From: Candidatus Gottesmanbacteria bacterium
Lineage (GTDB): Bacteria; Patescibacteriota; Microgenomatia; UBA10105; UBA927
DNA: 64,000 nucleotides
Direction of reading: 5' to 3'
Assembly: GCA_023245355.1 (NCBI GenBank)
Contig: JAHFKN010000004.1
Location: 25,309-89,308 of the forward strand
Part shown: piece by piece, positions 2,523 through 40,100 of the stretch
Layout: each line of letters opens with the position of its first letter
Position numbering within the stretch: position 1 is the first letter of the stretch
The notes under the pieces: generated by a model
What the model was told of the DNA's origin: nothing
Database searches by the model: none
What the model saw: the letters and a program-made list of their open reading frames with translations, nothing else
Translations under genes and position numbers: made by a program

Positions 2523-3239
2523 CTAATGCAGCCGTTTCCGTAACGCCCATAACTGCACCATATAGTCTAGCGTATCACGGACGATATTGACGGAGGAAAC
2601 TTTGTCAAAACGCCGGAGAAACAGAACGGGCACCTCCATAATAGTCAGGCCTGCGCGTCCGGCATACACCATAATTTCCGTGTCCCAAAACCACCCGGTA
2701 TGCCGTGTTTTCGAAAACACGGGAAGAATTTTTTTCCGGCGGAAAAACTTATACCCGGTTTCCGTATCCATGCCTCCCGTGCCGATCATTTTATCGGACA
2801 GCCACTGATACCCGCGGCTTAACACTTCGCGGATGATCGCTTTCGGACTGGTCCGGTAATATCTGCGTCCGATAACAACATCTGCCTGTCCTTTCAGGAT
2901 ATGCGAAACAATCGACGGGATATATACGGGAGATACCTCACAATCGATGTCTATGTATCCTGACACCGTTCCGGTCGAAGCACGTACCCCGTCCATGACT
3001 GTCTTGCCGCGACCCTGATTTTTCGTGTGATACAGCGCGCGCATATTAGGATAGGTACCGCAATACGTTTTGATGAGGTTTTGTGTACCGTCGGTACTTG
3101 CATCATCCACAAATATCAGCTCGTATGTCACGTGACTGCCGTCCAGGACATCTTTTATGCGCCTCACGCTGTCGGCAAATAACCCTGCCTCATTAAAACA
3201 CGGTAACACCAGGGAAAGATCCGGGGATTTTTGCTTCAT
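2523..3239 (-). CDS. GT2 polyprenyl-phosphate sugar synthase (DPM1/ArnC/GtrB-like)
   Basis: LSLVLPCFNE...LIFVDDASTDGT...DIDCE motifs typical of Dpm1/ArnC-type GT2 enzymes that load sugars onto polyprenyl phosphate. 238 aa. Confidence 0.8.
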   Translation of the reverse strand: MKQKSPDLSLVLPCFNEAGLFADSVRRIKDVLDGSHVTYELIFVDDASTDGTQNLIKTYCGTYPNMRALYHTKNQGRGKTVMDGVRASTGTVSGYIDIDCEVSPVYIPSIVSHILKGQADVVIGRRYYRTSPKAIIREVLSRGYQWLSDKMIGTGGMDTETGYKFFRRKKILPVFSKTRHTGWFWDTEIMVYAGRAGLTIMEVPVLFLRRFDKVSSVNIVRDTLDYMVQLWALRKRLH

Positions 3240-16118: not shown

Positions 16119-16931
16119 ATGGTACACTTTCGTATTGAAATGACTACTGCCGAGTTCCGACCGGTTGCTGAAATTTTAAATCCCCACGCTCCTAACTTCA
16201 GTGAGCTTCACTACCACGTCAGAATCGATGCGATGACACCTGAGGAAAAACTACACTGGCTCTCTGACCAAATCCTTAAAGAAGAACACCGCCTGCTCCG
16301 GGAACCGTACAACATGGCGCAAATCCGGCCGGAAGCCAAAATCATGTTCTTAACGGGAGGCCCCAAAAGCGACGTTACCGAAGCACGTGATTTTGACGGC
16401 AACCTCATTCATACGCGCCATCTCGATCATCCGCGGCCGATGTTTGCCGAAATTCCGGAAGCACTAAGCTCCATATCCCACTGGTTCGACATGATGATCC
16501 AAAGCAAGGAAAACAACACGCTGCCTCCGTCTCCTGTCGCTGCTCTTTCAGAAGTATCTGACGTCGTATACAACGTGTCACATCTATTAACACTCGATGA
16601 GTATTTCTGGGAAGAATACAACACGTACCTCCAGCGTATTGCAGGCTCGTTAGGGTACAGTCTGGATCAGCTTCTGACCATTGCCGTCTACAAATACAAT
16701 TTCCGGCTTGGCCAGGGAAAATCACAAAAAAATATCGGTATCGAAAATGATCTTATCTCAAAAGTACTGGCCAAGGTCGGCCCTGACGGCAAACCGCTGT
16801 ATCCGACACCCACCGAAACACAATTCCAGAAAACGTTCCATACACTGGCAGAAGTTCAGACGCTTCTTAATACACGCCTGGAGCAACTCCGCCAGGAACA
16901 TGAGTGGAAGAAACACCCCGTATCCGGCTGA
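16119..16931 (+). CDS. Soluble hypothetical protein embedded in the glycosyltransferase locus
   Basis: 270 aa with no TM segment and no recognisable motif. Tightly packed between membrane-protein genes. Confidence 0.5.
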   Translation: MVHFRIEMTTAEFRPVAEILNPHAPNFSELHYHVRIDAMTPEEKLHWLSDQILKEEHRLLREPYNMAQIRPEAKIMFLTGGPKSDVTEARDFDGNLIHTRHLDHPRPMFAEIPEALSSISHWFDMMIQSKENNTLPPSPVAALSEVSDVVYNVSHLLTLDEYFWEEYNTYLQRIAGSLGYSLDQLLTIAVYKYNFRLGQGKSQKNIGIENDLISKVLAKVGPDGKPLYPTPTETQFQKTFHTLAEVQTLLNTRLEQLRQEHEWKKHPVSG

Positions 16932-17000: not shown

Positions 17001-18857
17001 GTGTCAAAAAACTCCGCATTATTCGTATTGATAGCACTCGGGCTGTTCGTGCGGCTTATCCTGATCCCCAACCCCGGATTTGAAGCGGATATTTCATTCT
17101 GGAAATCGTGGGGGCTCGCGTTTGTCGACAAGGGAGCCGTCGAGGGACTCAGGGTGACCAACAATAACTACCCCACTCCGTTTATCTATACGTTAGGAAC
17201 CATGGTGGGGATCTACAAACTGTTTGCCGATCCGCATAATTTTCAGGAATTCTGGAAAAATACCAATCTCCTTTTTCTGACCATCAGTAAACTGCTGCCC
17301 ATTCTCGCGGATTTAGGGATTGCAGCGCTTTTGATCTATATAGGAAAAAACGCCAAAAAACTCGGATTTCCTTCTTTGGGATTTTCACTCTTCGGCCTGT
17401 CGTTTTATGAACTTGCGGCGGGTATCTATCTTTTAAATCCCGTGTCACTTATCGACGGCGCCTGGTGGGGCCAGGTCGACAGTGCCGGCGTATGTATTTT
17501 CTTAGGTGCACTCGTTCTTGCGCTCAAAAAACAACCGTTTGTTGCCGGATTCGTATTTATCCTCGCCATGATGACCAAGCTCCAGAATATGATTTATGGC
17601 CCTCTGTTTTTTCTTTTCCTGTGGCAAACGGGCGGATTCACCGGATTGATGAAAGCCATATTAGGAGCACTGACAGGCTTCGTAGGGCTTAATATAGAAT
17701 TCTTTGCTGCCAAAAACGCCGACCGGGTTCTATCCAGCCTTACCGAAAACTATGATTATTTCCCCTGGATGAGTCTTATGGCGTACAATCTCTGGTGGAT
17801 TGTGACGGGCGCCAAAGGACTTGTCACCTCGGATAAGCTTACGGTTTTAGGGATTCTGAACGCCAAAACCATCGGATTACTGTTATTTTCCTCATTCTAT
17901 TTATTTGCACTGCTCCGCCAGCTTATGATTTCGGTGCGCCGCGAAAGTACAAAAGACGACGGTACGAAACCGGTGATTCAGTCATTCCTCGAAGGTCTTA
18001 TTCTCGTAAACGGAGCGTTTTTTCTTTTTCAAACCCAGTCGCATGACCGGTATGCGTTTCCGCTGTCCGTATTCCTTCTGTTGTGGGCGCCGTTTATCAT
18101 CACTGACGGAAAGAATAAACTGTCAATTGCGCGGTTAAAGATATTTGCGGGATTTTATACCGTATTCAGCCTGTTCTATTTCTATAATCTTCATACGGCT
18201 CTTGCGGTAAATTATCCGCATAACGGCCTGCCGTTTCTATCGGGACTCACCCAGCCGGCATTCACAATATTTACGGCATATATCCTTCTTGCCCTTTTTG
18301 CCGTCTATATTTTTTCACTGCTTCAATTCTCAAAACACACCCGGCGGATCGGACTGGCAGTGCTCGCTATTTTTATTTCCGGAGTGCTGTATCTTAATAA
18401 ACCCCTTTGGCTCCGTCAGCCGGTACGTTTAACCGCATTTACGCCGTACATAAGCGAACAGGCATACGGAACCAGGCAAACGGACAAGGCGGTACAGAGC
18501 TCATTCGGAGGTGCGTACAAATGGACCAGACTGTCCGTACAATATCTCTTCTATGACAACGGCCTGGGAACGCACGCCAATTCCAAACATGTGTTTGATA
18601 TCAATAAAAAATTTAAGAAATTTACCACCGACTACGGCATTGATACCGAAGCAGGCGCCAAAGCGAGCGCGCGGTTTGAAATCTACGGAGATGACCGCCT
18701 GCTGTTCCGCTCGGAATCCATGGGCCGGTACGTGCTTCCTAAACACGCGGAAGTAGATATAACGGGTGTTACCTATCTTTCACTGGTCACAACAGACGCC
18801 GGTGACGGTAATTATGACGACCATACGGATTGGTTGAGTCCTGTACTCTGGCCATAA
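17001..18857 (+). CDS. GT-C-like membrane glycosyltransferase fused to a C-terminal NPCBM-like carbohydrate-binding domain
   Basis: 618 aa. N-terminal multi-TM region with an EADISFWKSWG loop. The C-terminal ~140 aa (nt ~18438..18857) reads GLGTHANSKHVFDI...FEIYGDD...VDITGVTYLSLVTTDAGDGNYDDHTDW, matching the NPCBM/NEW2 consensus (GLGvHA.S...VGvDD...V.v.GA..L.LVV.DaGDG...DHADW). Confidence 0.65.
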   Translation: MSKNSALFVLIALGLFVRLILIPNPGFEADISFWKSWGLAFVDKGAVEGLRVTNNNYPTPFIYTLGTMVGIYKLFADPHNFQEFWKNTNLLFLTISKLLPILADLGIAALLIYIGKNAKKLGFPSLGFSLFGLSFYELAAGIYLLNPVSLIDGAWWGQVDSAGVCIFLGALVLALKKQPFVAGFVFILAMMTKLQNMIYGPLFFLFLWQTGGFTGLMKAILGALTGFVGLNIEFFAAKNADRVLSSLTENYDYFPWMSLMAYNLWWIVTGAKGLVTSDKLTVLGILNAKTIGLLLFSSFYLFALLRQLMISVRRESTKDDGTKPVIQSFLEGLILVNGAFFLFQTQSHDRYAFPLSVFLLLWAPFIITDGKNKLSIARLKIFAGFYTVFSLFYFYNLHTALAVNYPHNGLPFLSGLTQPAFTIFTAYILLALFAVYIFSLLQFSKHTRRIGLAVLAIFISGVLYLNKPLWLRQPVRLTAFTPYISEQAYGTRQTDKAVQSSFGGAYKWTRLSVQYLFYDNGLGTHANSKHVFDINKKFKKFTTDYGIDTEAGAKASARFEIYGDDRLLFRSESMGRYVLPKHAEVDITGVTYLSLVTTDAGDGNYDDHTDWLSPVLWP

Positions 18858-18858
18858 T

Positions 18859-21207
18859 ATGAAACGCATAGAACCATATATCGGGATAGTGTTGCTTCTT
18901 GTTGCTGTCGGATTTAATCTGTGGACGTACCGCAGTGAACCGTCTTCACTGGTGGATCCGAATGACAATACGTTCCAATTTGCTTTGGTCGACAGGACAA
19001 ACCAAATATGGTCTTTTGCACAACAAAAGTGTACCGGCATTTTAAAGCCATTCTGCAGCATTTCCTACGTATCTGACCACTGGGTTCCGAACTGGGCCGA
19101 GGGATATAACCTCCCGTACTACTATTCGCACATTCCGCAGATCCTGATAGTCGCCTCATGGCGGCTTTTGACCCCGATGATTCCTCAGTATTCGCTGTTT
19201 ACCCATTATCATTGGGTTATTTATCTGCTTCTGTGCCTCTTCCCTATTTCGCTGTTTATCGCACTCCGGATTGTCGGCATTACCTGGATTTCGGCCGGCA
19301 TAGGCGCTCTCCTTGCCTCGCAGATATCGACAGACGGCCTCTACGGACTGGATCCTGCATCATTCGTCTGGCGGGGATACGGGTTAAGCAGTCAGCTATT
19401 TTCCACTATTTGGCTTCCGCTTGCGATTGCCTATGCCTGGCGGTATTTCACCAATCGCACATCTTCCCGTTTTCTTTGGCCGGCAATAGCAAGCTTGGCT
19501 GCAACGACAGCCGGTCATCTGGGCATGGGCATTATCGGATTTATGAGTGTGGGAGTCTTAGCTATCAGCCCGTCCGTACAATCTATACTGACACAATCCT
19601 GGGACAAAAAAACCGCAAAGGATCTCATGGATACCTTACTCAAGCTATGTTTTGTCTTCGGCGGTGTCGGACTGTTACTGGGATACTGGATCGTACCGAT
19701 ACTGCGCGACGGAAACTACCACAACATCTCCGTCTGGGACGGGATATGGAAATTTGATTCGTTCGGGTACCGCGAGGTGCTCAAAAATCTGTTTAACGGC
19801 GATCTGTTTGATTTCGGCCGCCTTCCTGTCATGACTATTGCCGTGTGTATCGGTCTGTTTGCGGCATTTTCAGGTACATATTTCGGATTTTCCCTTTTGT
19901 TTATCTTCTGGCTGCTTCTGTATTTCGGCAGAACGACCTGGGGAGGAGTATTCAGTCTCATTCCGGGAATGAGCGAATACCATCTTTCGCGTTTCATAGT
20001 CGGTGTCCATATAACGGGGATATTTTTAATCCCGTTAGGCATAGAAAAAATACGGGAAATACTCCGGCAATACGCGCCGAAATATATACCGACCGTCACG
20101 GGTCCGCTCATAGACCTCATATGTACGACCATCATTATTGCCCTCGGCATTTCGTTGATATATCCCCAGACCATCCGGTATGCCGAACACAATGACGTGT
20201 TGATCGCGCGGGGTATTAATTCATACCGTCAGGAGGTAAAAGACGTTGACGCCTTATTTACAGCTCTCAGATCAAAAATGGCTCAAAAACCCGGCCGGGT
20301 ATTTGCCGGTCGCGGAGGCGGATGGGGCAAAGGCTTCCGGATTGCGGAAACACCGATGTATATGCATCTTTCTACCTACGGCATTCCGGTTATTTTATGG
20401 CTTCCGGAAACATGGTCCCCTAATTCGGATACCGAACAGTATTTTTCGGAAAACAATCCCGACCACTACAACCTCTACAACGTGCGGTATGTGGTGACCC
20501 CGGCAACACTTAATTCCGAACAAATACAGCCGTTCTGGAGCCTTGTAGAGAACGGAGACACATGGAAATTGTATGAAGTGGCAACAGACGGATATATCAC
20601 ATCCGGAGTCCGCCCGGCAACCGTAAGCAGCACGAAAGCGGATTATAGGAATGTCGTGCGCTTCTGGATGCATTCCGGAGCGCCTGATCAGGGGTTATTC
20701 CCCGAACTGACGTTTGATGCCGCATACCCCAAACAAACCGGACGCGCAAACTTCCGGATGAGAAATGAGGTGACGTACGAAACCCCCGACAAAGCACTGC
20801 ATAATCTGTTTGCAGAAGCCCCGCTCTATCTCCCGCCGGCTGCTTCCTCACTGCAGCAGTTTACCGGCATGAAAAAAGAAGACTATGTAAAAAGTGTAGT
20901 TACGTCACAATCGGAAAACGGTGACATGGTCTTTACTGCGCGCGTGACGGTAAAAGAAAACTGCAAAGAGTGCATTGTGATCCTCAAGCAATCATTCCAC
21001 CCCTCCTGGCAGGCGACGGTAGACGGGAAACCCACACAGACATTTGCCGTATTTCCCTTTTATACCGCCGTCAGCCTGGATACGCCGGGAGATCATGATG
21101 TCGTATTTTCATATACGCCGTCGGCGTTCAAACACATATTTCTTGCTGTCGGATTGATTTCCCTTTTGTGCTTTCTTTGGGTTGCCCGTAAAAACCGGAC
21201 ACCCTGA
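18859..21207 (+). CDS. Large polytopic membrane protein with a ~380-aa extracytoplasmic C-terminal domain and a terminal TM helix (GT-C-like?)
   Basis: 782 aa. Many N-terminal TM helices and a final hydrophobic segment (IFLAVGLISLLCFLWV). Starts 1 nt after the upstream gene stop. Confidence 0.5.
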   Translation: MKRIEPYIGIVLLLVAVGFNLWTYRSEPSSLVDPNDNTFQFALVDRTNQIWSFAQQKCTGILKPFCSISYVSDHWVPNWAEGYNLPYYYSHIPQILIVASWRLLTPMIPQYSLFTHYHWVIYLLLCLFPISLFIALRIVGITWISAGIGALLASQISTDGLYGLDPASFVWRGYGLSSQLFSTIWLPLAIAYAWRYFTNRTSSRFLWPAIASLAATTAGHLGMGIIGFMSVGVLAISPSVQSILTQSWDKKTAKDLMDTLLKLCFVFGGVGLLLGYWIVPILRDGNYHNISVWDGIWKFDSFGYREVLKNLFNGDLFDFGRLPVMTIAVCIGLFAAFSGTYFGFSLLFIFWLLLYFGRTTWGGVFSLIPGMSEYHLSRFIVGVHITGIFLIPLGIEKIREILRQYAPKYIPTVTGPLIDLICTTIIIALGISLIYPQTIRYAEHNDVLIARGINSYRQEVKDVDALFTALRSKMAQKPGRVFAGRGGGWGKGFRIAETPMYMHLSTYGIPVILWLPETWSPNSDTEQYFSENNPDHYNLYNVRYVVTPATLNSEQIQPFWSLVENGDTWKLYEVATDGYITSGVRPATVSSTKADYRNVVRFWMHSGAPDQGLFPELTFDAAYPKQTGRANFRMRNEVTYETPDKALHNLFAEAPLYLPPAASSLQQFTGMKKEDYVKSVVTSQSENGDMVFTARVTVKENCKECIVILKQSFHPSWQATVDGKPTQTFAVFPFYTAVSLDTPGDHDVVFSYTPSAFKHIFLAVGLISLLCFLWVARKNRTP

Positions 21208-21232
21208 ACGTAACGCAGAGAATGCCATCGGT

Positions 21233-22039
21233 ATGCCGTACAACACGCGCTATTTCTTATTATTCCTGGGTCTTGCCGTCGTAACACTGATAAGCGTCAA
21301 TTTGCACTTCCCCACTCCGGCCGGAAAAGCAGATATCCTGATTATCTCTCCCCACCCTGATGATGCGGTCCTTTGCTGTACCGGACTTATTCTGCAGGCA
21401 TTGGGACAGAAAAAGCGCGTGCATATCGTAGAAATGACCGACGGGGACGGATATGCAGATGCGGCAGCTCTCCTAGCCAAGAAATCCGCCGGATTACTGA
21501 CATTGATAGACATGCGCAGGCTGGGACGGGTACGGAAACATGAAGAAATCCTAGCTATGCAAACCCTTGGACTCAACCGCAATCACATCACGTTTTTGGG
21601 ATACCCTGACGGCTGGCTGGATGAGGTGTACAACGCAGAAGATACACCGTTCCGCAGTCCCTTTACTGAATTGTCCCGGTCTGCTTCCTCTGACACACTA
21701 TATATCAAATCATCAGTTATAGCCGACCTTACATCAATTATTGCCCGGTACGCACCAACACACGTGTATGTGTCCGGCAATTTTGACAGTGCCTTAGATC
21801 ACCGGGTAACCTATAAATTCGTGACGGATGCCGTGAAAATCTCGGGGTATACCGGCAAACTGTTTATGTATGCAAATCACACAACGGACAGCGGCACGCT
21901 ATTGCCGGAATATGAGCTGACTCTTACACGGGAACAAAAACAGGCAAAAGCTGCTGCTATCACAGCATATACGTCACAATTACCGTTGGACGGTGATTAT
22001 CTGCGTTCGTTTGCCGGAACGAAAGAACTATTTTATTAG
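21233..22039 (+). CDS. PIG-L/LmbE-family N-acetylglucosaminyl deacetylase
   Basis: ISPHPDDAVLCCTG motif (the PIG-L HPDDE signature) followed by HIVEMTDGDG. An N-terminal TM anchor. The ATG at 21233 is preferred over the track start at 21182, which overlaps the upstream gene. Confidence 0.8.
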   Translation: MPYNTRYFLLFLGLAVVTLISVNLHFPTPAGKADILIISPHPDDAVLCCTGLILQALGQKKRVHIVEMTDGDGYADAAALLAKKSAGLLTLIDMRRLGRVRKHEEILAMQTLGLNRNHITFLGYPDGWLDEVYNAEDTPFRSPFTELSRSASSDTLYIKSSVIADLTSIIARYAPTHVYVSGNFDSALDHRVTYKFVTDAVKISGYTGKLFMYANHTTDSGTLLPEYELTLTREQKQAKAAAITAYTSQLPLDGDYLRSFAGTKELFY

Positions 22040-22104: not shown

Positions 22105-25100
22105 TCACTTTTTTATCTCTAATTCCGTATTTTCTCCGTTTCTCACAAATACGTGAATCGTCACTATTCCCGTCACGGTAATTCGTAGTTCCCCTATCGG
22201 TATCCGGTCGCTCGTCCGGTACATGGGTATCCATGTATCTTTCGGCACAGTGCCGAAGACAGATAACAATTTCTCATCAATATCCTTTTTATTCGGGGTA
22301 AATGACACCGTTCTTTTACGGTTTGCCTGCCCGACATCAATGGCTAATTCATCACTGACGGGACCCACCCACGAAAACCACCCTTCCGCATCCGTTGGCC
22401 CGGCGGGATCCTCTATTTGGTAGGCCAGATACCCGCGGACAATATTTTTCTTTGCTGATTCTGGAACCGGCACGGCGATATCAATAGAATGATCCTCACT
22501 CCCGGCTGCCGCCCCGATATCCAAAAGCACCAACATCCCTTTCTCATCTATGCTGACTTCATACGTAATGGGGTCGTTTAGCACATGCAGACGGTCTCCG
22601 ACAAAAAGCGGCACATCGCCTCCCGACATCACCTGCCCGTTTTTCATAATATCCCTGTTGTCGTAATCCCTGTGCACAATCAGCTGTTCCCCGATAACCT
22701 GTATCCGCATCGGTGTCGCTTGCGTAAGGTACACATCAATACTTGCTGACGGCGTCAATCTGGCTGACGGAGGTTGTAGAGGAGACTCTTTTACCTGTGC
22801 GGCATTCGTATCAATCATCACGTTGGGCGTATAAATCACGGCAAACGAAAGGTCGTCCTCATTCCGCACCCCCCATTGTATAAACGCGCTCATAAGCTGT
22901 GTGCGCGCGGCAGATTCATCAGGCGCATCATTCAGGATTCTGGCTACATCAGCCCGATGCCCCTCAGAAATAATCTTCTGGATACTGTCACTACCCACAA
23001 TCCATCTGCTGCCCGGCGGCATCTCGCGCTCTACGACATTGGCAACACTGCCATCATCCTCAAACATCTGCGGCGTTTCCCCTGTCGTGCCCGTTACTTT
23101 TATCTGGTATGCGGCTTTCCCGGCTTTTGTCGGAATATTAATCCACGCCAGATACGTACGCGCCTGTTCGGGAGTCAGCCTGCTGTTTTGCCGTTTTACA
23201 GCAGCGATCGCCTGCGGCAAATTCGGTACAGTTTTCAACACGCTCCGTAGCACATCGTCGGGCAGTGATCCTGCTTTGTATTGCGCGCGCTCATCGTCTT
23301 GTATACGCGCCCATGCGACTGCCTGCTCCGCCTGAGCAGTACTCAACCGGGTATTCATCAACAACAGATTATTCACATCCTCTTCTACGTTTTTGACTGT
23401 AGACAGAATTCTGTCAACGTCTGCTTTCTCTAACTCGCGCGGTTCATCAACACTGTCCAATTCCTTCGTTTGCTGGTTGTAGACAAACCGGTAATGGTTC
23501 CCGACCCGGTAATCCAGCATGTATTGTTTTCCGTCTTTCCGGTAAAAAAGAATGACGGAAAGTGTCGTACGCACTTTTTCTGAGGCCGTCGCATTGTAAC
23601 TCCGCATTTCCTGCGCATACAAATCCATGATCTGTGCCAACCTGTCGGTACGGGCATCCGTATCCAAAAATACGTTCGGGTCAAACCCGCTTCCAGTCAT
23701 ACGCCGGTATGTTTCTATTGCCCGTTCCCATGCTTCTTTCTGAATATCCGCTGATGCACGTCCCTGACTTGATACGCCATCTATATTTACGATGATGTCA
23801 GGGCCGGTGATGATGACATCCTCCCCTCCGATTGCATACGTTGCCCCCTGCGGAACCTCAGGAACAAATGCGGGCACTAATGACTTTCCTGCTTTTGCAA
23901 GTGCTGCGCCTACTGATTGTTGTGTGTTCGAAAGCGGCGTTCCCATTTTTATGCCGAGCAGCTCCCGCACCCTAGGATCCATAATGCCCAAATTCACGCT
24001 ATACGGACCGGATGTAAGTACATTCCATAATCTTCTCCACCATGGCAACGCATCCTGATATTTTCTGCCCGCCAACTCACCAATTGCGCGCTGCCATCGG
24101 AATGCACGCGTGACATCTTCATCGGATTCGAATTTGTTTTTGGGCGCAATTTGTTCCAATTGATCCTTCTCGCGGTCAGACACGCCTAATTCAGTGAGCC
24201 GGATACCCCCGCGTTTTTCTACCGTCACATCAGGATGCAGATACCGCCGGAGCCAATCCCATTCCCAATAGGGAATACCTTGTTTTGGCAATCTATTCTC
24301 AAAGAAATGAGCAGATATAGTCTGTAACGCGTCTTCATTTGCGCGGGACGCCAAAACACCCAGTGCCTCATCAAAAATCGCTATATTTTCCGTATCGGCA
24401 TCCGACTCACCCCCGGTATTGGCAAATGTCACATCCGTGATACCAAAACTCGGATGGGAATAGTATCTGTGACCGTCAATAGAAAGATCCGATAGCTCGT
24501 GCTGCAGCGCCTCACGGAACGCCTGTATATCTACTTGCGTTCCCTCAGGAAGAAAAATGACAAAATCATTTGCGGATTTATGAAATACGACAATCTGGTG
24601 AACTCCCAGTGATCCGAACACACGTTCAACAATAGGGACAAACTGTTTATGAATCATCTCGTCCCCTGCCAAATCCCCCAGATCCGTATTTACGTGTTTG
24701 AGCGTTCCTGCATAACTCACCTGCAATAGCCGGGCATTTCCGGGATATAATTCATGAGCCGACTTTATAGCACCTTTAGCATTTTTATGCACCAGCACTT
24801 TTGCGTTTGCATCAATCGTCCGGAAATACCGTTCCAAAACGCCTGCCGGCCCCTGTAACAAATCATCTACCAGTAACGTAGTGGTCAGTTGTGTCATGTA
24901 TTGCCTGAACTGCTGATGCACGCTGTTTCCAGTCTGACCCAATAACGAAATATCATGTATCAACAAGTTGATAAGCCCATAACTTCTGCGTAGATTATCC
25001 AGCGCCTCCGTGTATATAGCATCTCCTTCTATAGCAGCAGCAAGGGCATTCTGATCCACACGGGCGACATCTTCCATCGCTAATGATTCATCAGAAAGAT

Positions 25101-28100
25101 GTATGCCAAGCGGCCTGGATGTTATCCGTTTTCCGTCTTCATAAAACATCGTGTGTGTTCCTAATATTTCTCCAAACCGCGATATAAAATCGTCTGCTTC
25201 AGTATCCGTCACTGACTCATCGACGAATATGGCATACTTATCCCCTGCTACGCGGATGAGGCCGAAGCGGTTTGCCGCGTCATTCATGGCAATTCTTGTT
25301 TCGAAAAACACCGCAGCCATGTCTTTCAATAAATAATCTCCCAATAATTTTTGAGTTCTGGAATCGGCGAGGACATGATTTGCCCCGAACAGATTTTCAA
25401 TATCAATAACTTTGACAATCTTACGGTTTACATGCGACAGCAACGGCCAGGATTGGGACGTCCAAACAAGTTGAGGAGCATCTCCGTAACTGTTTACCTC
25501 ATCAATCCAGTCAGTCCGCACCTGGCTCCGGATGCTTAAAGGAAACATTTCACGGCTCAGTGGCCGGAGTTGTTTTTGATGTAATGCATCAAGAAAATAC
25601 TCATTATATAGATCTACCAATTCCGGGGCGCCGATAAGTATCTGATTCATTTGTGAGGCTAACTCTATGTCTCCCATACGGTTGATAAACTGTAAGAACG
25701 CGCGGAAAATCGCTGCCTTTACTATCTCCCGCTGCTGAACCCGCTGGAAGCTGTTCTCCTGTGCACTATACGCTTGCAACACCGGCGTCCTGCTGCGCTG
25801 TTGCAACTCTACAAACACATCACGGAAATCGTTGAGAAGCTGTTGGTGTGTCCAGGTGCCGTTCCCTGACACTGATGCAAACCGTTTGCGCCGGCCGCTC
25901 GGGGTGACCAGATCCATCACCGCAAATACCGTCCCGTCAGGCACTTTCACCGTATCAGCTGAGTATTCCGATATGGAATCGAACTCTGCTTCAGATACGA
26001 GTACAGGAGGGACATACGAAACAAGCGCTGTTCCGTTCATCGCCTGTATCATAGGACCGACATACGGCAGACGCAGTAATCCCAAACGCAAAAAGCGCTG
26101 GAGCCATATCGGAATATACCGGTTATTCGTCACCATAAACACGACACCCAAAAGCGACTCGTCCTGCGATCCGTTGATCGCCCGGACAGCCGTATTGAAT
26201 GCATCCGGCTCAATCCACTGGTTATCAGGAGTGATCATCGGTAATGTTTGCGGCTGGATTCTCCGCAACTCAACCGGGAAATTTTGCGCATCACTGCTTT
26301 CCGGATACGTAGGTACCATCGGCGAGATGATGGAAGAATCGTTTTTGAAATCCATATGAAGCGCTTCCAGTGTTTCCGCATATAAACGCGCAACCCCGCT
26401 GAAACGAAGCGTTCCGTCAACCGGTATCTGTAACACCGGATCCTCAACCTGAGTATTCATACCGGGAACATTCATCGTTCCCTGCTCCAAAATACCGTTG
26501 CTTAACGCAGCAAACATCCGGAATGCCAACACGCCCTCTACCACCAAATGATCGCCTGTTACTATGATGCCGCCGGTACCCGTCCGGGCAACCCGGAGCC
26601 ATGCATTCTGACTCTCCGTATATCTTCCGACATACCGCTCCGGATCAGCCGGCTGCTCGTCAATAACGACCATCGCCTCCCCCGGATCCGCTGCTATTTC
26701 ACCCTGTGCAATCAATCCGGCAATTTCATCCGCCGTAAATTCCCGGTCCAAAGGAACCCTGATACGCCGGAATCGTCCGTCTGCTTGTGCAATCGCAATC
26801 ACCGCTTCATCTTGGATAAGCTCCCTGGGATCATAGGCGGTCCTGTTTTTTGCTTCATTCACCCGTACAAACAGAGGCTGATTGTGTGCTCTGGCAGCAT
26901 CACTTCGGGCAAATTGCAGGAAGTTGACTATCAGTTGCGGCGCAAAGTCATCCTTTACCCGCATGTTTTTATATTCCTTGTGCAGCACGATCGCCCGTTC
27001 CCGCCGGGTCAGACTTCCCACCATATATTTCTCCCACTGCGTCATTTCGGAAACAGCCCGCGAATCGACGGCAAATTGCGGAGAAGAAATCCGCCTGATA
27101 CCCACAAGCAGCCAGTATAATCCGCGTGCCAGAGCCCGACGCATAGAGGAAGCGCGGAGAATCGGCAGATCGTTCATTGCTGCTGTAAGCTGCGTCGGTG
27201 TCGGCAATCCCATGCGCACCAACGACCGGTCATCGGTGCCGATTGCTACCCGTAGGCTTTCGCCGAACGGATACTGCGGCTGCATACGGATAAACAATCC
27301 TCTCACGCCCTCCTGTACTCCGCGCAGCTGATTGAGCATGCCCGCACGCCGGGCGACAGCCGGCCACCGTTCAATCGGCTCATGGGTAAATAATGCTACT
27401 GCTTCTTCACGGGACATAAACCGTCGGACACTAAACACCGCTTCTACCCCTGATGTGACCATGGCGTCGTACTGACGGTATTGCTGCGGGGTTCCCATGT
27501 GAGCCGCCAAAAGCGCATCAATTTCACCCGCATACTCTTCCCCGTATTCACGGATGACTTTTGCACGGATGACCCCCGCTTCAACGGGATAACTGTCATA
27601 TTGTCCCCCGTCTGCCTGACGTTTCGTGAGCGTTCGAATAATAAATGAAGAATCTTTCGCGAACGAATTATCCCGTTGGGCGGCATATGCAAGTATTTCC
27701 GTGCTTACGATATACCGGTATGTGCGGGCATCAAGATACGCAGCTAATCCTTCCCGGCGCTCTTCCTGGGTATTCCATGACCGCAATAATTCCGTTAACC
27801 GGTCGGTTGCCGGAGCAGAACTTCCGTCATTCCTGATGATGTCATACACCGCATGCTGCATCTCATGAATAACCATTTGTCTGCCGTACGCTTCCCCGTA
27901 CCGGCGGTTTATAAATATAACCGAATCGTTAAATGCTGGTATCAATGTTTTCCCAGGATGCAACCCGCTTGCGCCTTCATACGAAACCCCCTGTGCTACG
28001 ATACCGTCGTGCATGAGCTCGTGAGCATTCAACGCCGCTTTGCTAAAATCTGCAGCATCCAGTTCTATGATCACAAACGGGCCGCGGACGACCATGCTGG

Positions 28101-31100
28101 TTTCTGCTCCCACATCCGTACCGAATACTGCTTTTATGAACGTTTGCCCGTCCGGATACGCTGAGGCGGCGCGTCCGATAATCTGTTGCTGCGTGCGGTA
28201 CCGCTCCACAATTCTAACCATTTCATCCCGCACCGGCCGCGTAAATCCGTACGTTATCTGATATTGATCATAGACGGCCCGGATTGCCTCGTCGTCTGCC
28301 TGCGGATTTGCGATAAGAAGCTCGCGGACTTCGGCTTCCAATCTGGCCAATCCGACTCGGTAATAGGCATACTTTTTATCAAACGCCGCCTTGGTCATCC
28401 GGCGTTCCCAGGAATTCGGCGGGGTTTGCCGCATGGTGGTTATCCACTCGCTCACGTCAAACGTTTCGCCCCTTCGTATGGGAACGGCGGATATACTCTC
28501 CCGGAACCTGGTAAATAGATATGGTTTTTGCAGGAATTCAGGAATTAATTGCTGAAAGCCCCATACCGACCGCGTTACCGGTTTCTCCGGATCCATAGAC
28601 TCGAGTATTACTGCTGCCGGCGGCTCCATTCCCTCTTCTATAATCGGTGTCACACTGTCGATTACTCGCCCGACCGGACAATCATTTGCACCCTGAGGAT
28701 CTTGTGCAAATACCAACGGAATCAAACGCAATGCAGACCCTCCGCATGCCTGTTGTCGCACCCGTTTCGCCGCGGCTCTGACAAACTGTTTTGCCGGCCG
28801 GGTCACCGGTGTATATGCATTCCGAAGCGCCCTGCCGCTGCGCACTGCTGCAAGCGCCAGCTGCGGATCAATCCACGGACGGCTTTGCTGACGGAATTGC
28901 GGAGATTGCGGCGCAGGTTCTGAAGCAGGAATCAGTTTCCCTATTCCCTGCGGAATAAGCACCTGCATGGTCTCATCAAACTGCCACAACCCGCGCCACA
29001 TAACACCCAAGGAAGCTGTTACTCTTGTAAACCAACGTTTGTCCGTCTGCTGTCCCTCAAGACGGAGCATGGCGCGCGCGAGCGCAATGTTTGCACGCAA
29101 AGACCGCTGAATCGCACCGGGATTACCGGCTGCAACTTCGGATGATTTGAGCGCACGTCCTGCGAAAATCCGCTGCACGAACCGGAACGGCCGCTGCACG
29201 GCGGTATATGCAACTCCGACAAACACCGAACTCAAACTTAGATTCGTGCCTGGCACAGACCCCTGTTGCCGCGCCGCCGCCAATGCGCCCCCCTCTTCCT
29301 GTGTAAGTAATATGGCGATTTGTGATCGTCCACGGCCCTCTGCAATCGCGCCGTATTTGGCGACAAACTGATCAAACGTAAGCGTTTCACCGCGGATAAT
29401 TCCGTCTCCGGTCACTTTTCCGTTTGCAAATTTATAGTTTGCGTCATATACCGTAAATGTCTGTATTCCTGCTTCATTTGTATCAATATACGCTATGTGT
29501 CCGGGATTTTTTGATCCTTTGTTGTATACGACGAAAAAATGTCCGGGTCCGTATGTTTGCAAATCTTGTTGCGACTGTACGCGTAATACGTAATATTCAC
29601 CCCGAAATACCAATCCGTCGGGATCATTGGATAATTCATCACCGGCCATAGATTTCGCCACTTCACCTCCGATTGCTGAAATCGGAATATTGAAATCAAC
29701 GAGCCCGCTTTCTACGAGAAGATTTGCAAACGCCACACATTGCACCTCCTGATCCGGCCAAACATTGCGCTGCGAGGTGAACAGGTCATCCAGGAAATCG
29801 TATGCATCATAGTCCGCCCGGTCGAGCTCACGTGCAAGCGTCTCAAACCCGCGGTCAACCAATCCTGTTTTTAATGCTTCACTCGGCGTTACTGTATCTC
29901 TGTCAGGGCTACTTTGCCATTCGTTGAGGATATCTGCAAATACGTTGGACATAATAGCCGCCTGCGTTTTGGCAGCCGGGCCCAATATCGTCCGCGCACC
30001 TGCTGCTGGTAGCCGCGGCAAAGCGGTAGGAACCTGTGGCAGCGTTTCAGCAACCGGTGGCTGCGCCTCAATAACAGGCGGCTGTACTTCTTCCGGTTGA
30101 CTCACGGCGGCACTTTGTGCTGGTACCGACAGCGGTTTAGTTCCGGCAGGAGACAACACCTGTACTCCTTTAAACTTAGCAAGGAACGTATCGACCGGCA
30201 TGAGGTACGTGCCCGTCGCCTCATCTTTTTCTATACCGGCATACACACCCCACGTAGACGGATTGATAAATGAAGTCATCAGGCCGTCTGCCAGCCGGAC
30301 GAATACTTCGCCGTCACGCTCAACAAACCCCAGATACACCAAACTGTGTTCGGTAACTTTCGATGAATTAAGGGAAATGATTGTTCCATGGGCAACACCC
30401 TTGTAGGCTGCTTCCTGCTGTCCCATCATGACCCGAAGTAATGACTCCCTCAGATCAGCAGACGGCACATACAGAATAACTTTTCCGTCCTTGATCTCGT
30501 ATTGTATGGACGGGTGCTTGCTCACCATTTCCAGGAATACCGACTGGGTAACTTCGTACCGCGTCTTGGACTGCGAAATGACGGGGATTGTTTCGTCACT
30601 TAACTGATAGCCCATATTCTTAAGAATTGAGGCAAATTCCGTCTTCCCTTTCCCCTCCTGAACCCCGAGATTCAGAAGCGCCAGCGCCTGTTCTGACTTT
30701 GTTCCGCCGCCGTGGTTTAAATATTTCTCCACGATTGCAGGATCCATCGTCAGACTGTCGCGGGACTGAGCTTCGGGAGACAATAATTCCGCATACAACA
30801 ACGGGTCGATAACGACAGGCACGGTTCCCGTAGTTGCAGTCTCTGCATCGATAAGCGATATTGCAGCCGTAAGCGTATGGATATAACAGGTAAATCCGCC
30901 TGCCTGCGGCAGCGCGATAACGTATCCTGAACTCTTGCTTCCCGGCAAGCCGCTTTGGATTTGGGAAAGCGGAATTGCAGCGGTTTGCGCACCGCGTTCT
31001 TCCGTCGTTGCCGACGGGAATACGTCATCATGGAGAAGTGACCCGCTTGGCTGACCGTCGGACGGATATGTCACAACCCGGGCAATCACCGTCCCCTGTT

Positions 31101-34100
31101 CATTCGTGATATCGACAACTTGTGCGCCTGCCAACACAAGCCGCGCGTTGATACCGTTTACATTTCCTTTTCCGAGCGTTGCCTCCAGACTCTCATACAA
31201 CTTACGCACATCATCAACCATTCGGTTTTGTTGTGCCGTACTAGTACCATACGTCCGCTGTGACTTGACATAAGTTACAAGCGCCTGCGTCACATCCGTT
31301 TCATACCCGAGCGAAGACACTGATACGGGGACAGCTGCGGACGGACCACTCCCGCTATTACTCACGGGAGGCAAGACCAGTATCTCACTGGGCTGTTCCT
31401 GTTGATCAGTGATGACATTGCTGCTTTGCTGCCTGCTCGCAAGATAATCCTGAATCCGTTCTGAATACCCCTTCATGGCAGGAACCTGAGACAGAAGGAG
31501 TGCTAGGGCCAACACACCGCTGACCATTTTAATCGTTACCTGCGCGAATACTTTTTCCAGCGATTCAAATACGCGCCAACCGACTGACTGCAATCCGAAC
31601 AATATGGCAAGAACGGCTGCAATCATTCCCGATATCTGCGGCAGCCGCGTCTGCACCAGTGATCCGTACTGGGGAACCATCATGGCAATCGCCGCAAGGA
31701 ACCCAAGTCCTGCCGCTATCTCAACTGCTATCAGTATGTTATTTCTGGTAAATAATCCGCTGATCTGATCACGAAGCGGTGCTATCTGCTTCCGCGGACC
31801 TGCCGGAACAAGGACGGACGGCAATAAATCTCCGCGCTGCCCCCGTGTTACTGCCGGCGTCTGACCGCGGTCTTTTGCTCCGTATATCGAACCAAGCGCG
31901 GTAATCCATTTCCTCGTATTGTTCCTGATATTTCCTTTGTAAAGGGAAGTATCAATCCCTGTTAATACCGCCGTAACGACGTCGTTGATCTCTTGGGTTT
32001 TGACCTTCTCGCCTCTTGCCAGCCGTTCTACTACTGCGCGGGCCTGTGCATTCCCGGCTATGGCGCCGACAATGATATTGGCAGCGCTGTCGCCGGTAAT
32101 GCGCGTAATCAGTCCGAATGTCCGGGCATCTGCTGTCTCCCGGACCATCGAAGTTACCAACGCTGCCCGCACGGATTCAATAAGCGGAGACACCGGGGCT
32201 CCGGAAAGATGCCGCACTACATTCTGCTGGATAAGCGCCAAATCAGAATAATTATGAACACGGATCTGATCTTCTATCGCAGTATCGACTGCAGACTGGA
32301 CGAATGTTACCCATGCTTCATGCTGACCGACGTATTCCAGCAAACGGTCCTGAATATACACGGCAAATAGAGTCTCCCAATGGTCTTGCGAGATTGCCGC
32401 CGGACGGATCGGATATGCAGTACTTACCTCACGCACAACTCTGTCACGGAATTCCGCGTCATTGCGGTCAATGACACGGCCTTCCGCAACCCACGTGCGC
32501 AAAGCTGCGCGTACCTGCGTACGGATTTCCGCTCCGCGGATTCCCATAAGGTCAGCAAACCCCTTTGTCTCTTCCGGCGTTACGCGGAATAATTCATAAG
32601 CAGCGATGAGTCTGCTCCTTAATGCGGCAATGTCTTCTGTTCTCGCCGGAGATCCGGTATCAAGGGTAGGACTGCGTAATAATTCGGTCAGCAATGCATA
32701 CTCTTCTTCATGTCCGTATGTTGCCGTCCTGTTTGCACCCCTGCCTCTGCTGATAGTTCCGATCCTGTTTTCGATAGCAGTACGGAGAACAATCTGTTCC
32801 TTTCTCAGTGCTTCAAGCTGAGAAGCGAAAATCACATTTGATTCCTCAGTCATCTCCGTACTTTGTAATTCTTCAGGAATTATCTGCGGCTCGGGCGTCT
32901 GCCGTTGTGCCGCCTGCCTGATAATTTCAGGATCTACTCCTACGGTTCTGGCCAATATTGCCGTTAACCGGGTCGCGCGCTCATTGCGTTTTGCCCGTGT
33001 GACCAACCGCTTCATTGTGTCTGACTCCATTACACGGATAAGACGCGGGGTGGCAATGGCGATATGAATTTGCTTATCCTGCGATGTGAATTCCTCCTGA
33101 TGCGATTCTATATAGGCAAGCGCTGCTCCTCCCTGAAGCTTCACTCCCTCAATAGTCGTAATTTGCAGCTGCTGGTCAAGCTGGAATCCGAGCGTCCGTA
33201 TAACAAATAACGCCATTGTCGGATTGGTAACACCAAGAATGCGTACCGGCCTGGTATACCACGGCATGCGTTGAATTTTTTCTATCGCACGGACCAAATC
33301 AACAGTTCCTAAATTGACCGACTGGACATCATATATCGCATTTTGGCTTGCGCTAAACGGCACGAAATGCATCCACATGGGTATCAAAGGAATAATCGAT
33401 TGGGAACTTTTGATACGGCGCGGAATGAATGATATGAGTGATTCAATAAACCTTGGTACACGATCATATAACCGTGATATAACGTCACTTACACGGGATC
33501 GCTCGAAAGCCACTGATCCGGTCCAGTCATAATTAGACCCGGTCATACGTGCATGGATATTTGTGTCTGTTTGGAACAACTCTTCTTCCGTTAGCGACGC
33601 TAACGCTTCGCGATATCTATCTTCAGAAAAGTTCTCGTCCGTTATTCCAAACCGCTCAGCCACTCCGGGCGGCAGCGATTCGATCAGGCGGAAATTTACC
33701 ATCTGCGGCGTTTCATAAAAATCACGCTTACTGTTGTATGGGATACCGAACTCATCGAGAATCGAGCGCGCTGCGTCGCGATTGGCTTTCGTATTTTCAA
33801 GACGGATTATATTCAGGTTCAGCCCGGAAGCGATGCCTGCTCGACGGGCTAAATCAGTCTCCGTACGGGACATTTCGAGCCGAAGAATACGTAATAATTC
33901 TTCCACAACCCGGCTCCTGTCATTTCCTGTTGTAAATATCCGCCCATGTTGTTCAATAAAGTACGTAACTTCATTCAGGGTAGAAACGACAGCATTCGTT
34001 GAAAGATTCCAGAGACGGTTCTCCGAAATCAACCGGAGCCCTGTGGTAAGCAGTACAATCGGGTTTATTTTATCGGTATCCACACCTTCTTTTTCTATAA

Positions 34101-37100
34101 GGGATTCAAGCACCTGAGTGTCTATTCCGAATCGCAGGCTAAGCATCGGAATAACATCTTTGGATTGTAATTTGCTTGTCGCGGTAAACCGTGCAACATC
34201 GGACCGGCTACGGGGAACCGACAGTCCGTTGTTTCCTGATCCCCCATCAACGACAACCGGCACTTCATTGACTGCCGCTTCTTCCTCCCGGATAAGGCTT
34301 CTTCCGTCACTCAACAGTAGTTGCTCAGCCGACTGCACCGGGCTCAGCAGTATGGGATATGAAGTCTTCCCCGTTACCTCAAAAATAGTCCTCACATCAG
34401 ATGCCAATTCCAGCATCCGTTCCTGTGCAGCCATGGGATTTTGCAGGTCGGCCACCAACATGGCAACCGCGTCAGGAAGGGTTATTTCTGGGGGTATGGG
34501 TTCTTCTTCCCTTGGGGGAATACCTGGCGCCGGTGCCCCACCCGCAGGCTGCTCATTCTTTCCGCCCGGCTCCCCCGGTTTTAGAAGCCACAAATAATGA
34601 GCAATATCAGTGATCAATTGTGCGAAATTATCCTCGGAAATACCATACGTTTGTGTGATATGAGCAAGCGTTTCATCGGTCGGTTGCCTGTATTGGACAT
34701 CATTGGGGAATAATTGTTGGAGAAGTTCTGTGGTAATTTGCGCGGCATGGAGTCCACGGAATATCTGCTCTGTTTCTTCTGCACTGCGTACCCATCCGCT
34801 GTTTGCTTCCTCAAGAATTTCCAGCGTCAGCTGCTCCTGCCGTACAACAGCAGGAATCTGAGCAGTCGGATTGACTGTCATGGATATCAGTGTCCGCATA
34901 TATATTGTCAAAAGCGCCCTCACTGCGTCGGGGTTTGCCCGCACCTGAGTAAACTGCCGTTGAATTGCCGCTTGCGCCTCATCCCACCGGGGATTTGTGT
35001 CCAGTTCTTCCTGTAGATCAGTAAGACGCGGCAATACCAACTCCCCGGTAGCTCCCGATATATCGGCAAATACCGCATCGAGCATTGCGTTATCTTTCGT
35101 TGCGTCCAGCCCGAACCGCGCCGCCATTTCATCCATAAGATCCCGGATAGTGCTTTGCGGTGCAGGCGCAGGAGCTTCCAAACTTGCATAAATTTCCGAT
35201 ACCCATGACTCAAGTTCTGTGGTGTTGATTCCTGTTTCCATGATTCCGCCGTCAATAAGCAGCATTCTGATCCTGTCACGGAGCATCGTTTCCCTGTGTT
35301 GTCCGCGTGCTTCTGCAACAAGCCGTTCATCAGACGCTACCCGTGATAACAGGTCATAAAATTCATCAAGTGCAGCGCGGTCCGCAATGACATGCCGTAT
35401 ATACCCGGTAAACCGCTCAGCTTCGAAGCCTACTGTCTCTTCGAGTAACGGGCTCAGGGATTCACGCACAACTCCGATTCCCTGTGCCTCTGTCGTCCAT
35501 GATTCCTCACCGAGCGCACGGACTACGGCAGTAATATCAGTAAGGAGTGCTTGTGCCCGGTACGGATTTCGCATAACCGCACGGATAATATGCGGAGTAA
35601 GCGGAGCAAGTTCCCGTGCATCGGCAAATAATCCCAATAATGTCTCCCACGCAACTTGAACGTGCGGGTCACGCCAGGCTTCCAATACACCCACCGGCGG
35701 CATAACACCTACCAGCATGTCTGTCACGATCGGTGCGATAAGCTGCCGCCACCCATCGGGAATACCGCGCGTTATGGCAAATGTAATACTTCTTCGTCTC
35801 TCATTCATGGCACGTGCTCCGCGTGAGCGCTTCTGCTGCTGTGCCCTGGATAAAGCCAACGCTTCCCTACCCGCCCGTTGACGGATGTTTGTCGCGATAA
35901 ACTCTCTGGGAGCTGCCGGAGGTACACCCTCATCAAACGTCATACCCCACTTTGTCAGTTGGTCCAGGAAATCATTGAGCCGCTCCTCGACAGACTGCAG
36001 CACGTCGTACCTGCCCATTTGGGATCCCGTCCTTCTCGAATACCGTCGCTCAGGCGGAGCAGTTCGGTTATACGCATCAATACCGTTTTCCAGCAATTCC
36101 AACGTACTCTGACCGCCCGTCGTTGTCTGATCTACCGCTGCCGTCCTCTGATTCAGCTGCCCTAAATATGCAACCATCGGATCAAACACCTGCCGGAGAA
36201 TCGGCTCGCTTAATCTGGTATACGTCTCACCCGCTTCGGGACCGGTGTTATCTACACCGGCAATCATATGCTCCATAAGCTGATGGATAGTGCCGACTTT
36301 TACGTTTACCTTGCTGTTCCATGCAGCCAAAAACTTATCCGGACTGATATGAAAGGTGGTAAACCGGTTTAATATAATACCCGTCACGGCATCGGCAAGT
36401 ACCGGTGTACTATCTTCATTGATCCACGTTGTTCTTGCTTCTGCAATCGTCCGCAGTATAAAGTTTTGCAGATCCTGAATTTCACGGCGTAGCTGCCCCG
36501 CCTCCTCAAGGTTCTTATATGTCTCGGTCTCTTCAATTAAACGGATAAATATATCCTCGGGTACAAATATCGGCAATCCCGGATTACGCAATTCCGCTTC
36601 ATACGCCGCGCGCAATATGTCTGCTGCCCTATCCGCTGGGCTCGCTATGATGGCTCTTCGTGCCGATACAAGGGCCCGTAATTGATCCCTGATTTCTTCT
36701 GACTTCGCCTTCGGGAACTCAGTTAACAGCCATGCATCATAGGCCGCACGGGTTTCCTGAACTTTTTGACGAACCTCAGCGGTAACAGTACGGAGTTCGG
36801 AAACATTCTGATTATCTACAGCGTCATACCACTGTTGCGGTACGTCCTGCAGCGTCTTGTGCATATACGATTCCTGGTCGCGTATGATACGAATTGACGC
36901 CTCAATATATTGAATCCGCAATTTACGCTCGAATGATCCAGCCGCCCTCTTCCGTTGTTCTTCCGGCAATATGGTGATTTTCTGTACATCTGCATCAAAC
37001 GCGCTGATAAGCTTTTCTGTCTCATCAATGTTATCTTCTGCGCCAAGCGACAATCCCTGATATCGGCTCCGCAATTTAGAGAGAATCTTATTCCCTGCCT

Positions 37101-40100
37101 GAGTAACTTTTTCCTGCAACTCCGCCCCGTAATGCCCATACTCGCCGCGGGCGATTGCGTCGGCAATCTGCTGCAACCGTGCAGTATCACGGCTCAGCCG
37201 GGCATATACTTCCATATCTGCCACAGTGGACAACTCGTCAAAAAACGCCGTTGCCGCTTCAAATTTTTCCATTGACGATGTATCTGCCCCGGGAACGAGC
37301 GCCTTGAGATCAAACACCGGCTGATCCAACACACTGAAATCTCCGTTCCCGATATTTTCCATAAGACGCTGAGTAATCTGTATGTTCCCCTGCATGTCTG
37401 CTTGTGCAGCATCTGTCAGTGTTTCCGCTTCTGACCGCATGAACTCATCCAATGCTATCAGTGCGTTATACCGGTCCAATCTCCTTTTATAAATCGCGTA
37501 GTCATTTCCTTTACCCATGCCGCTAAACCACGCTTCCGAAAATACCGTTTCTCCCCCAAGCGCAACTCCTGCCGGCTTCTCATCAAATACGCGTTTTGCC
37601 GTCTGTATATACAACGCGTGATACCCCGAGATAGCTGCATGGTCCCGCGGGGAATATTCTTCCGGAGAATAAAACCAGGCGTCCGCATTCTGGTAATATC
37701 CTGAAACTTCCTCAGACATCCACGCTTTAAATGCACCTTGCCCGAATTGACTGTCAAATAGGGTACCGAATGGCGGCACCATTGAGGATCCACCCCGTAG
37801 CAAATAGGTGTACCCTGTGTCTGCTGTAGTTGCCAGACTGTCCAAAATCGCCCGCTCCTCAACACCTGCCTTACGAAGCAAATTAACGGCCTCTAACACA
37901 CGGGCAACACCTGTTCCGTATGCTATGAATTGAGCATCCGGTACGACCAGCTGAGCCAAACCCGACGTAAATGCTTCAATGTACGTTTGTTCCTGCGATT
38001 TATTAATGCTCAGATTTTGCACCTGACGTTCATGAATCATTTCATGAGCCAATGTGTTTACAAGCATTTCAGTGTTATTAAATTGACTTGTCAGCACGAA
38101 ATGACCGCTCAGTTGCTTTGATTGGAAGCCAACCACGTCAGCGGCATCAGCGGTGTCGTATACGATCCCAAGCTTTGCGTCGAGCACGGTAAACGGCACT
38201 GCATACCGTCCGGACCCGAATGCGAACCGGTGCCCCGTCTTGTCTTCAACGGTCTGATTAAGATAATTATGCACGGCAATATTGAGATCAAAATAATTGC
38301 TGAGCGTACCGAACGAAGAAAGGATATCCTGATAACTCAGGCGCATACTTGCAGCCGCAAGATATAATTCATCATCCGTTACTTCCGTAAGCGCTCTGTC
38401 GTCGCGATATACTCCCCCGTTTACCCGTGATTCTATTGACTGCAACAGGGCTGCCTGTAAATTCGTCAGATTAGACAAATCCAAATGACCGCCATCACGG
38501 GTGTTTTTCAGCCGTTGCTTGGCAATACTCGTTTTGTACAGGGTAACAAGACCCTCAACGGTGCGCTTGTTTTCGGCTGCATCCCCGTACATACGGGATA
38601 TATACTCATCAGCAACTTCCCTGAGATTAATTGTCACGCCTAACAGGTGCGCGACTTTAGTCTCCATGTCTTTCTGTATCAGACCGGCACTCCCTATCTC
38701 GGTATTCAGGGTGGTAAATTGGGAAATTTCCGTTTCGGTAAAATCAAATCCGAGCCTGTCATATTCACTCTTCAAACTGCGTAACGCCGTCGCAGTAAGC
38801 ACGCTGTTTTTGTCATACCCGTTCGCACGGATAAAATCAGAAATATGATTGGTAAATTGTGCGTATCGTCCGATAAACCGCCGCACCTCATAATAATCAG
38901 TAGCCGCCTTCCCGAGTTTCACAGACGCCACACTCTTCTCTAACGTGGTGTTCTGGCGTGAGCTTCTGCCCGCTGTTATCCTGTCTATCACGGACTGTAT
39001 TGCCGGGGGAAACTGTTTCTTTTCCGTCGTATCCCCCGCCGGAGCCACAGCTGGTGCTGCCTTTTTAAGTTCTTCTATCTTCTTTTCTGCCTCTAAAATC
39101 TCTTGCTCATACTCCTTGAGCGGGTCATTACCGAGAATTGCATCTGCCGCCAGATTCCACAGATTACGAAGCACGCTTGAGGATTGTCCGGTAATTTCCG
39201 CTTTTATCGCCGTGAGTGTCCGCTCGGCAGATGCAGCATCGGTCATCGTACGTATCAGGGACAAATCCGCTTTGCGCTGCGCGCGGATGAACGCGAACAC
39301 TTCATTTGCCTGCTTTGCGCTCTTACCTGCTAATTCTGCACGCACCGCGTTCATAGCTAACGCCCGTGCAGTCCGCGCATTTTGCCTCGCTCTGTCTGCA
39401 AGAGCTACTTCATCAGGAGCGTCAAAAATGTCAGCTTCTTTGGTATGCACAAGATATCGGACTATATTAAACAGAATCGTATTTACGGGCTTCCCTGCAT
39501 CCTCATGGCCGGATCCCGGCCTATGATTATCTTCATGCTGCTGTATAGCTGACATAATGTCATTGAGATACCCGATAGCAGAATCTGTTTGCCCCACACT
39601 CCTGGCCTGATGGGCCTTTGCAAATAGCGGCATGATGACGTTTTCCACAAAATCAGAACAGTCAGAACAAAGCAGCGGATTGATTTGTGCACTGCTGAGC
39701 ATCTGAGCTTCGACATTTGCACCGAATAAATTCGCGACGAGAGCACCGACATCGGCGCCACCCGAAACTCCGGCCGGTGCTGCCGTATATACCGTAGTGT
39801 AGATAAATTGCGATTCCGACACGGTAACCGGCGTTTTTACCCCCTCAAGATCAATATTCCACGTTGACCTGTTTATACCGTTTCCTCTGACACGTCCTTT
39901 TATCTCAAGCACCGTGCCGTTTGCATTCGTATATTGAGCGATAACGTCAATACCAAGTCCCTGCGCGACACCTGCCGGCAATACTACGCCTGTCAGGGTA
40001 TATCCCGTGAGATCAACTTCAGGCGTTGTTGTCACCGGTGCAGAAGGAACGGGGACCTGGACAATAAGTGTTCCTGCTTCAAATGCTAACCGCTGCTCTT

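Follow-up and report, generated by a model that had tools for sequence, protein, structure and literature searches.

[quoted passage not shown] As the best explanation, we consider it probable that the outward-facing GT-C/CBM51 enzyme and its partner jointly build a surface glycoconjugate, with CBM51 binding the acceptor or product glycan. The pair lies within a stretch of 64,000 nucleotides, from a tiny and uncultured member of the Patescibacteria, that we analyzed as a whole (the window). The focal gene (17001..18857, + strand, from the ORF list) encodes 618 amino acids, begins with a GTG codon, and ends with TAA at 18855-18857. The start call is backed by the homologues, which begin at the same position (MSKN/MPKN), and a protein identical to the focal one has been called on a 118-kb metagenomic contig. 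Neither a paralogue of the enzyme domain nor a second NPCBM domain was present elsewhere in the window. A mobile or phage origin of the gene was rejected, since a phage collection yielded one weak partial match (23% identity, E = 6e-7).

The initial annotation had placed an NPCBM/NEW2 domain at the C terminus of a GT-C membrane enzyme and suggested structure prediction and a survey of domain architectures as checks. Its idea that the domain could tether the enzyme to a polysaccharide product or substrate is supported by our analysis. The domain itself was borne out by a significant PF08305 match of the focal protein (score of 108.6 bits, with a curated gathering threshold of 23.9; E = 3.2e-31; covering positions 13-136 of the 137 in the profile), and PF08305 was matched by 37/37 homologues. 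The proposed fusion was confirmed by the predicted structure (pTM 0.84), in which a GT-C membrane domain of 13 helices is followed by an NPCBM/NEW2, i.e., CBM51, β-sandwich (residues 485-616, 18453..18848, + strand) that superposes on solved CBM51 modules. Its motifs GLGTH, GIDTE, and DDHTDW align with 2vmg and 7js4; the motifs that are best conserved among NPCBM domains (G-x-G-T-H, G-x-D-T, and D-D-H-x-D-W) are retained. The module also contains family-specific invariant residues, namely, S512, Q514, Y515, F517, and Y518. The module may act as a lectin; characterized CBM51 members recognize galactose, blood-group A/B glycans, or GlcNAc. NPCBM domains also occur in cytoplasmic "conflict-system" proteins, where they are fused to TIR, kinase, or death-like domains (PMC8195603); such a role was rejected for a module that follows 13 helices.

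The fusion recurs well beyond the window. The module was found on 37 of the best 150 enzyme-domain representatives (clustered at 50% identity), and nearly all of the best 120 of 419 matches have kept it. The same architecture was also found in Eisenbacteria. The GT-C/CBM51 fusion is a conserved design and not a one-off; it is annotated in databases, but we found no study of it in the literature.

The membrane domain (residues 1-470, 17001..18410, + strand), with its 13 predicted transmembrane helices, displays the features by which GT-C enzymes are recognized, i.e., a polytopic membrane fold that contains the conserved module of seven helices and, in outer loop 1, a pair of juxtamembrane helices. 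Structure comparison placed it nearest to ALG6, ALG3, GPI mannosyltransferase I, and PimE, and its best structural matches are active transferases. On the basis of this model, we assign the focal enzyme to the GT-CA type of polytopic GT-C glycosyltransferases. The enzyme domain had no family-level Pfam or NCBIfam match at an E value of ≤0.1, and the focal-protein sequence matched none of the PDB GT-C enzymes in a profile search (E ≤ 10). GT87 was matched by 22 of the 37 homologues at an E value of ≤1 (best, 2.3e-06) and Alg6_Alg8 by 3 of the 37; some members carry the JGI label "Gpi18-like mannosyltransferase." Since the focal protein lacks a family or PDB sequence match and does not reach the curated family thresholds, we rejected its membership in GT87, GT57, GT58, GT50, and GT76 and filed it in none of them. 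GT-C-only relatives of 400 to 450 amino acids exist, and the enzyme fold can therefore do without the NPCBM domain. The same GT-C fold is found in PIG-U, which is not known as a transferase (PMC12041525), and the fold alone is thus no proof of catalysis.

The last transmembrane helix (residues 445-465, running from inside to outside) and a 19-residue linker (466-484) lead into the module (18333..18452, + strand), as delineated from the secondary structure of the model and K/R counts. Across the 37 homologues, loops rich in K/R (313-321, 367-372, and 442-449) alternate with loops that lack them (345-348 and 405-418); the outer loop 345-348 contains no K/R in any homologue and has K/R-rich inner loops on either side. 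The charge pattern of the N-terminal half is ambiguous, as the simplest way of counting the helices would put the basic loops NAKK and KKQ "outside." The topology call was made from the C-terminal six helices only, and its outcome is unaffected by this ambiguity. The 13 helices, together with the K/R loop pattern, predict that the CBM51 module and the C terminus are extracytoplasmic.

The best-conserved segment of the protein is the first extracytoplasmic loop (residues 23-58, PNPGFEADISFWKSWGLAFVDKG..., 17067..17174, + strand), with a mean pairwise identity of 82% in the homologue alignment. A conserved acidic residue in this loop is a hallmark of GT-C enzymes, and three were found: E28 (17082-17084), D30 (17088-17090), and D43 (17127-17129), all on the + strand, are invariant in the alignment of 37 homologues. 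The catalytic Asp of PimE, ALG6, ArnT, and PglB sits in JM1 (PMC12041525), and by linear position, E28, D30, and D43 would parallel it as candidate catalytic acids. Within the invariant motif MTKLQNMIYGP (residues 191-201, 17571..17603, + strand), K193 may coordinate the donor phosphate, likened by linear position to PimE K195 (PMC12041525). A further conserved motif, QSHDRY (residues 346-351, 18036..18053, + strand), occupies a short loop on the outer side; it has four invariant residues (S347, H348, R350, and Y351) and two nearly invariant ones (Q346 and D349, at least 90%). This motif may provide active-site His and Arg residues comparable to H321/H322 of PimE (PMC12041525). By analogy with its fold relatives only, the enzyme may use a lipid-phosphate-linked sugar donor (PMC12041525).

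The partner gene (18859..21207, + strand), which starts 1 nucleotide past the focal stop codon, encodes a YfhO-like GT-C membrane protein of 782 amino acids with a large C-terminal outer domain. A YfhO-like GT-C gene is located directly downstream in 66 of 68 related loci, and in one metagenomic protein, a focal-type enzyme and a YfhO-like partner are fused. The pair is followed on the same strand by a gene (21182..22039, + strand) that encodes a PIG-L family sugar de-N-acetylase (Pfam PF02585, E = 2e-24); a PIG-L gene is found downstream of the pair in loci L003 and L004 as well as in some of the species loci. Upstream, a soluble protein of 270 amino acids (16119..16931, + strand) has no Pfam or NCBIfam match; tblastn detected it in 13 loci at 43 to 93% identity, and its gene is adjacent only in the closest relatives. 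The only GT2 glycosyltransferase that we found (2523..3239, - strand; Pfam Glycos_transf_2, E = 4.9e-26) is of the polyprenyl-phosphate-sugar synthase type and lies 14 kb from the focal gene, outside the conserved pair. Its best NCBIfam matches, all below threshold, are PgfS (the closest), ArnC, PpgS, AglJ, and Dol-P-hexose transferase, and it is a weak candidate for the supplier of a lipid-linked donor.

In the mechanism that we propose, the active site would face the outside of the cytoplasmic membrane. A sugar would be taken from a polyprenyl-phosphate-sugar donor, made in the cytoplasm and flipped across the membrane, and would then be passed to a surface glycoconjugate. CBM51 would hold the glycan already present on the acceptor or product, thereby concentrating it locally or bringing it into position. 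The enzyme would work in sequence or in a complex with the co-transcribed YfhO-like GT-C; as to the acceptor and the order of action of the two enzymes, we infer that one may prime the acceptor and the other extend it.

A possible acceptor is encoded by an unexpected conserved neighbor, a convergent giant gene of 10,844 amino acids (22105..54639, - strand, from the ORF list), whose lineage lies outside the coverage of the giant-gene preprint. Its product gave zero Pfam matches in 10,000 of its residues. In a narrower form of our best explanation, in which the acceptor is a protein, the pair would be a dedicated lectin-guided O-glycosylation machine for this giant protein: the YfhO-like enzyme would prime Ser/Thr in Pro/Thr-rich or other exposed regions, and GT-C/CBM51 would read the primed sugar and extend it. 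Consistent with this, 22 of 45 loci have, after the pair, a convergent open frame that spans 1,500 amino acids or more and continues past the end of the locus, versus 0 of 40 upstream flanks, and giant genes of 7,176, 13,555, and 5,270 amino acids have been called at that position in three genomes. The giant protein in the window has one N-terminal transmembrane helix (residues 60-85), followed by a Pro/Thr-rich stretch (105-129, PTKTPTKTPTKTPTPSKTPTKTPTP). There is also a precedent in the YfhO-family proteins PgfM1, PgfM2, and PgtC2, which O-glycosylate Ser/Thr-rich regions of surface proteins, the pgf operon adjoining its adhesin substrate genes (PMC12041528), and PgfS is the closest match of the GT2 in the window, although below threshold. 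Nevertheless, among the loci with sufficient flanking sequence, half lack a giant gene at this position even though the pair is conserved, the giant-protein C termini are barely alike between genomes, and the Pro/Thr-rich stretch comprises ∼25 residues and was seen in one genome. Convergent orientation means that there is no co-transcription, and the adjacency may stem from a common cell-surface island rather than from an enzyme-substrate tie. We therefore regard a machine dedicated to the giant protein as unlikely.

The remaining alternatives concern the two domains themselves. The NPCBM-like domain might be a structural cap or folding domain with no lectin role, similar to those periplasmic domains of certain GT-C enzymes that are not lectins. 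The family-specific invariant residues could then provide a contact surface for the membrane domain, and the pTM value suggests fixed packing of the two domains; against this, the retained top motifs align with solved sugar-binding CBM51 modules, the GT-C-only relatives do without the domain, and the solved relatives all bind carbohydrates (methyl-galactose in 2vmg and GlcNAc in 7jrl). On balance, a purely structural role appears quite unlikely. Alternatively, it could be the membrane domain that is non-catalytic, a PIG-U-like scaffold whose lectin senses or holds the glycan while the YfhO-like enzyme does all of the chemistry. With strictly invariant acidic, Lys, and His residues at positions that would parallel the PimE active site, a first loop conserved above all other segments, and active transferases as the top structural matches, we consider this improbable. 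Patescibacteria are widely believed to live attached to other cells, and the protein could be a membrane-anchored adhesin of an episymbiont. Its module would then bind glycans of host or prey cells, much as CBM51 of gut bacteria binds foreign (host) glycans (PMC3267712). However, a linker of ∼19 residues from the membrane is too short to span the cell wall, the module belongs to an enzyme whose active site is conserved and which is strictly paired with a second glycosyltransferase, and Eisenbacteria share the architecture. An adhesin is hence very improbable.

To our knowledge, almost nothing has been established experimentally about how Patescibacteria (CPR) build the cell surface, which mediates their attachment-dependent lifestyle. 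The locus provides a module that is concrete, conserved, and testable, comprising an ALG6/PimE-like GT-C with CBM51, its strict coupling to a YfhO-like enzyme, and, as a frequent neighbor, a giant protein in which no domains were recognized. CBM51 is usually seen as an accessory of enzymes that degrade host glycans, and its presence here would mark a recruitment for biosynthesis. Which sugar the isolated 140-residue module binds is readily measured and would identify one constituent of the CPR surface glycan, with no need to grow the organism. If the giant protein were indeed the acceptor, the locus would represent a previously undescribed CPR protein-glycosylation system and the first functional handle on the "dark" giant proteins of CPR (5,000 to 13,500 amino acids in related genomes).

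Compared with known systems, the CBM51 module shares its fold and motifs, at 23 to 31% identity, with those of Clostridium perfringens GH95/GH98 and ZmpB, Streptococcus pneumoniae GH98, and Akkermansia GH110 (structures 2vmg, 2vng, 7js4, 2ygl, and 8pvs). Those solved modules reside on secreted degradative enzymes (glycoside hydrolases and M60 peptidases), and their ligands are galactose or blood-group glycans of the host, whereas the focal CBM51 is part of a membrane enzyme of biosynthesis, in a groundwater lineage that is either free-living or episymbiotic. PimE (GT87), ALG6 (GT57), ALG3 (GT58), and GPI mannosyltransferase I (GT50) all lack a CBM. They also have an even number of helices (14 in ALG6) and both ends in the cytoplasm, in contrast to the 13 helices and predicted outside C terminus of the focal protein. 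PimE has 12 helices (PMC12041525).

The YfhO-like partner is a feature shared with the YfhO, PgfM1-PgfM2, and PgtC2 systems of Firmicutes (PMC5836110, PMC8035078, and PMC12041528). PgfM1 and PgfM2 likewise represent two GT-C enzymes in one pathway, and, as in Pgf-type systems, a GT2 of the PgfS/ArnC type (by sub-threshold match) is found in the same island as the focal pair. A CBM-bearing GT-C has not been described in the Firmicutes systems, however, and the second GT-C at the focal locus is ALG6/PimE-like rather than another YfhO. Unlike in those systems, a GtrA/GtcA flippase was not identified in the window, where none of the five small ORFs scanned was of the GtrA type.

The closest parallels in overall design are GT-C enzymes in which, as predicted for the focal protein, an extracytoplasmic β-sandwich CBM follows the membrane domain. 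These include the mycobacterial arabinosyltransferases EmbA/B/C (GT53) and AftD, whose lectin-like CBMs bind the acceptor glycan; CBM mutants of EmbC make less and shorter arabinan (PMC3044687; bioRxiv 10.1101/2019.12.22.885152). GT136 ORF12 of Citrobacter youngae, an extracytoplasmic O-antigen ribofuranosyl/xylofuranosyl transferase, is a GT-C that likewise has acidic residues after helix 1 (the essential D31 and E34) and a C-terminal CBM beyond the last helix (residues 503-652), which is beta-rich and binds the unmodified acceptor polysaccharide (PMC11127046). This CBM was dispensable under the conditions tested (PMC11127046), and the focal module may therefore add little to catalysis. The ORF12 system is multi-component, and its GT2 makes the undecaprenyl-phosphate-sugar donor. 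ORF12 differs in being the sole GT-C of its system, whereas the focal enzyme is obligately beside a second, YfhO-like GT-C, and in having an immunoglobulin-like CBM rather than CBM51; its hosts are Gram-negative Enterobacteria, and the focal host belongs to the Patescibacteria. No homology of the focal catalytic domain or CBM to GT53, GT136 (including ORF12), or their CBMs was detected. The locus extends the design of a GT-C with an acceptor-binding CBM, represented by mycobacterial arabinan and enterobacterial O-antigen synthesis, to another GT-C lineage and another CBM family.

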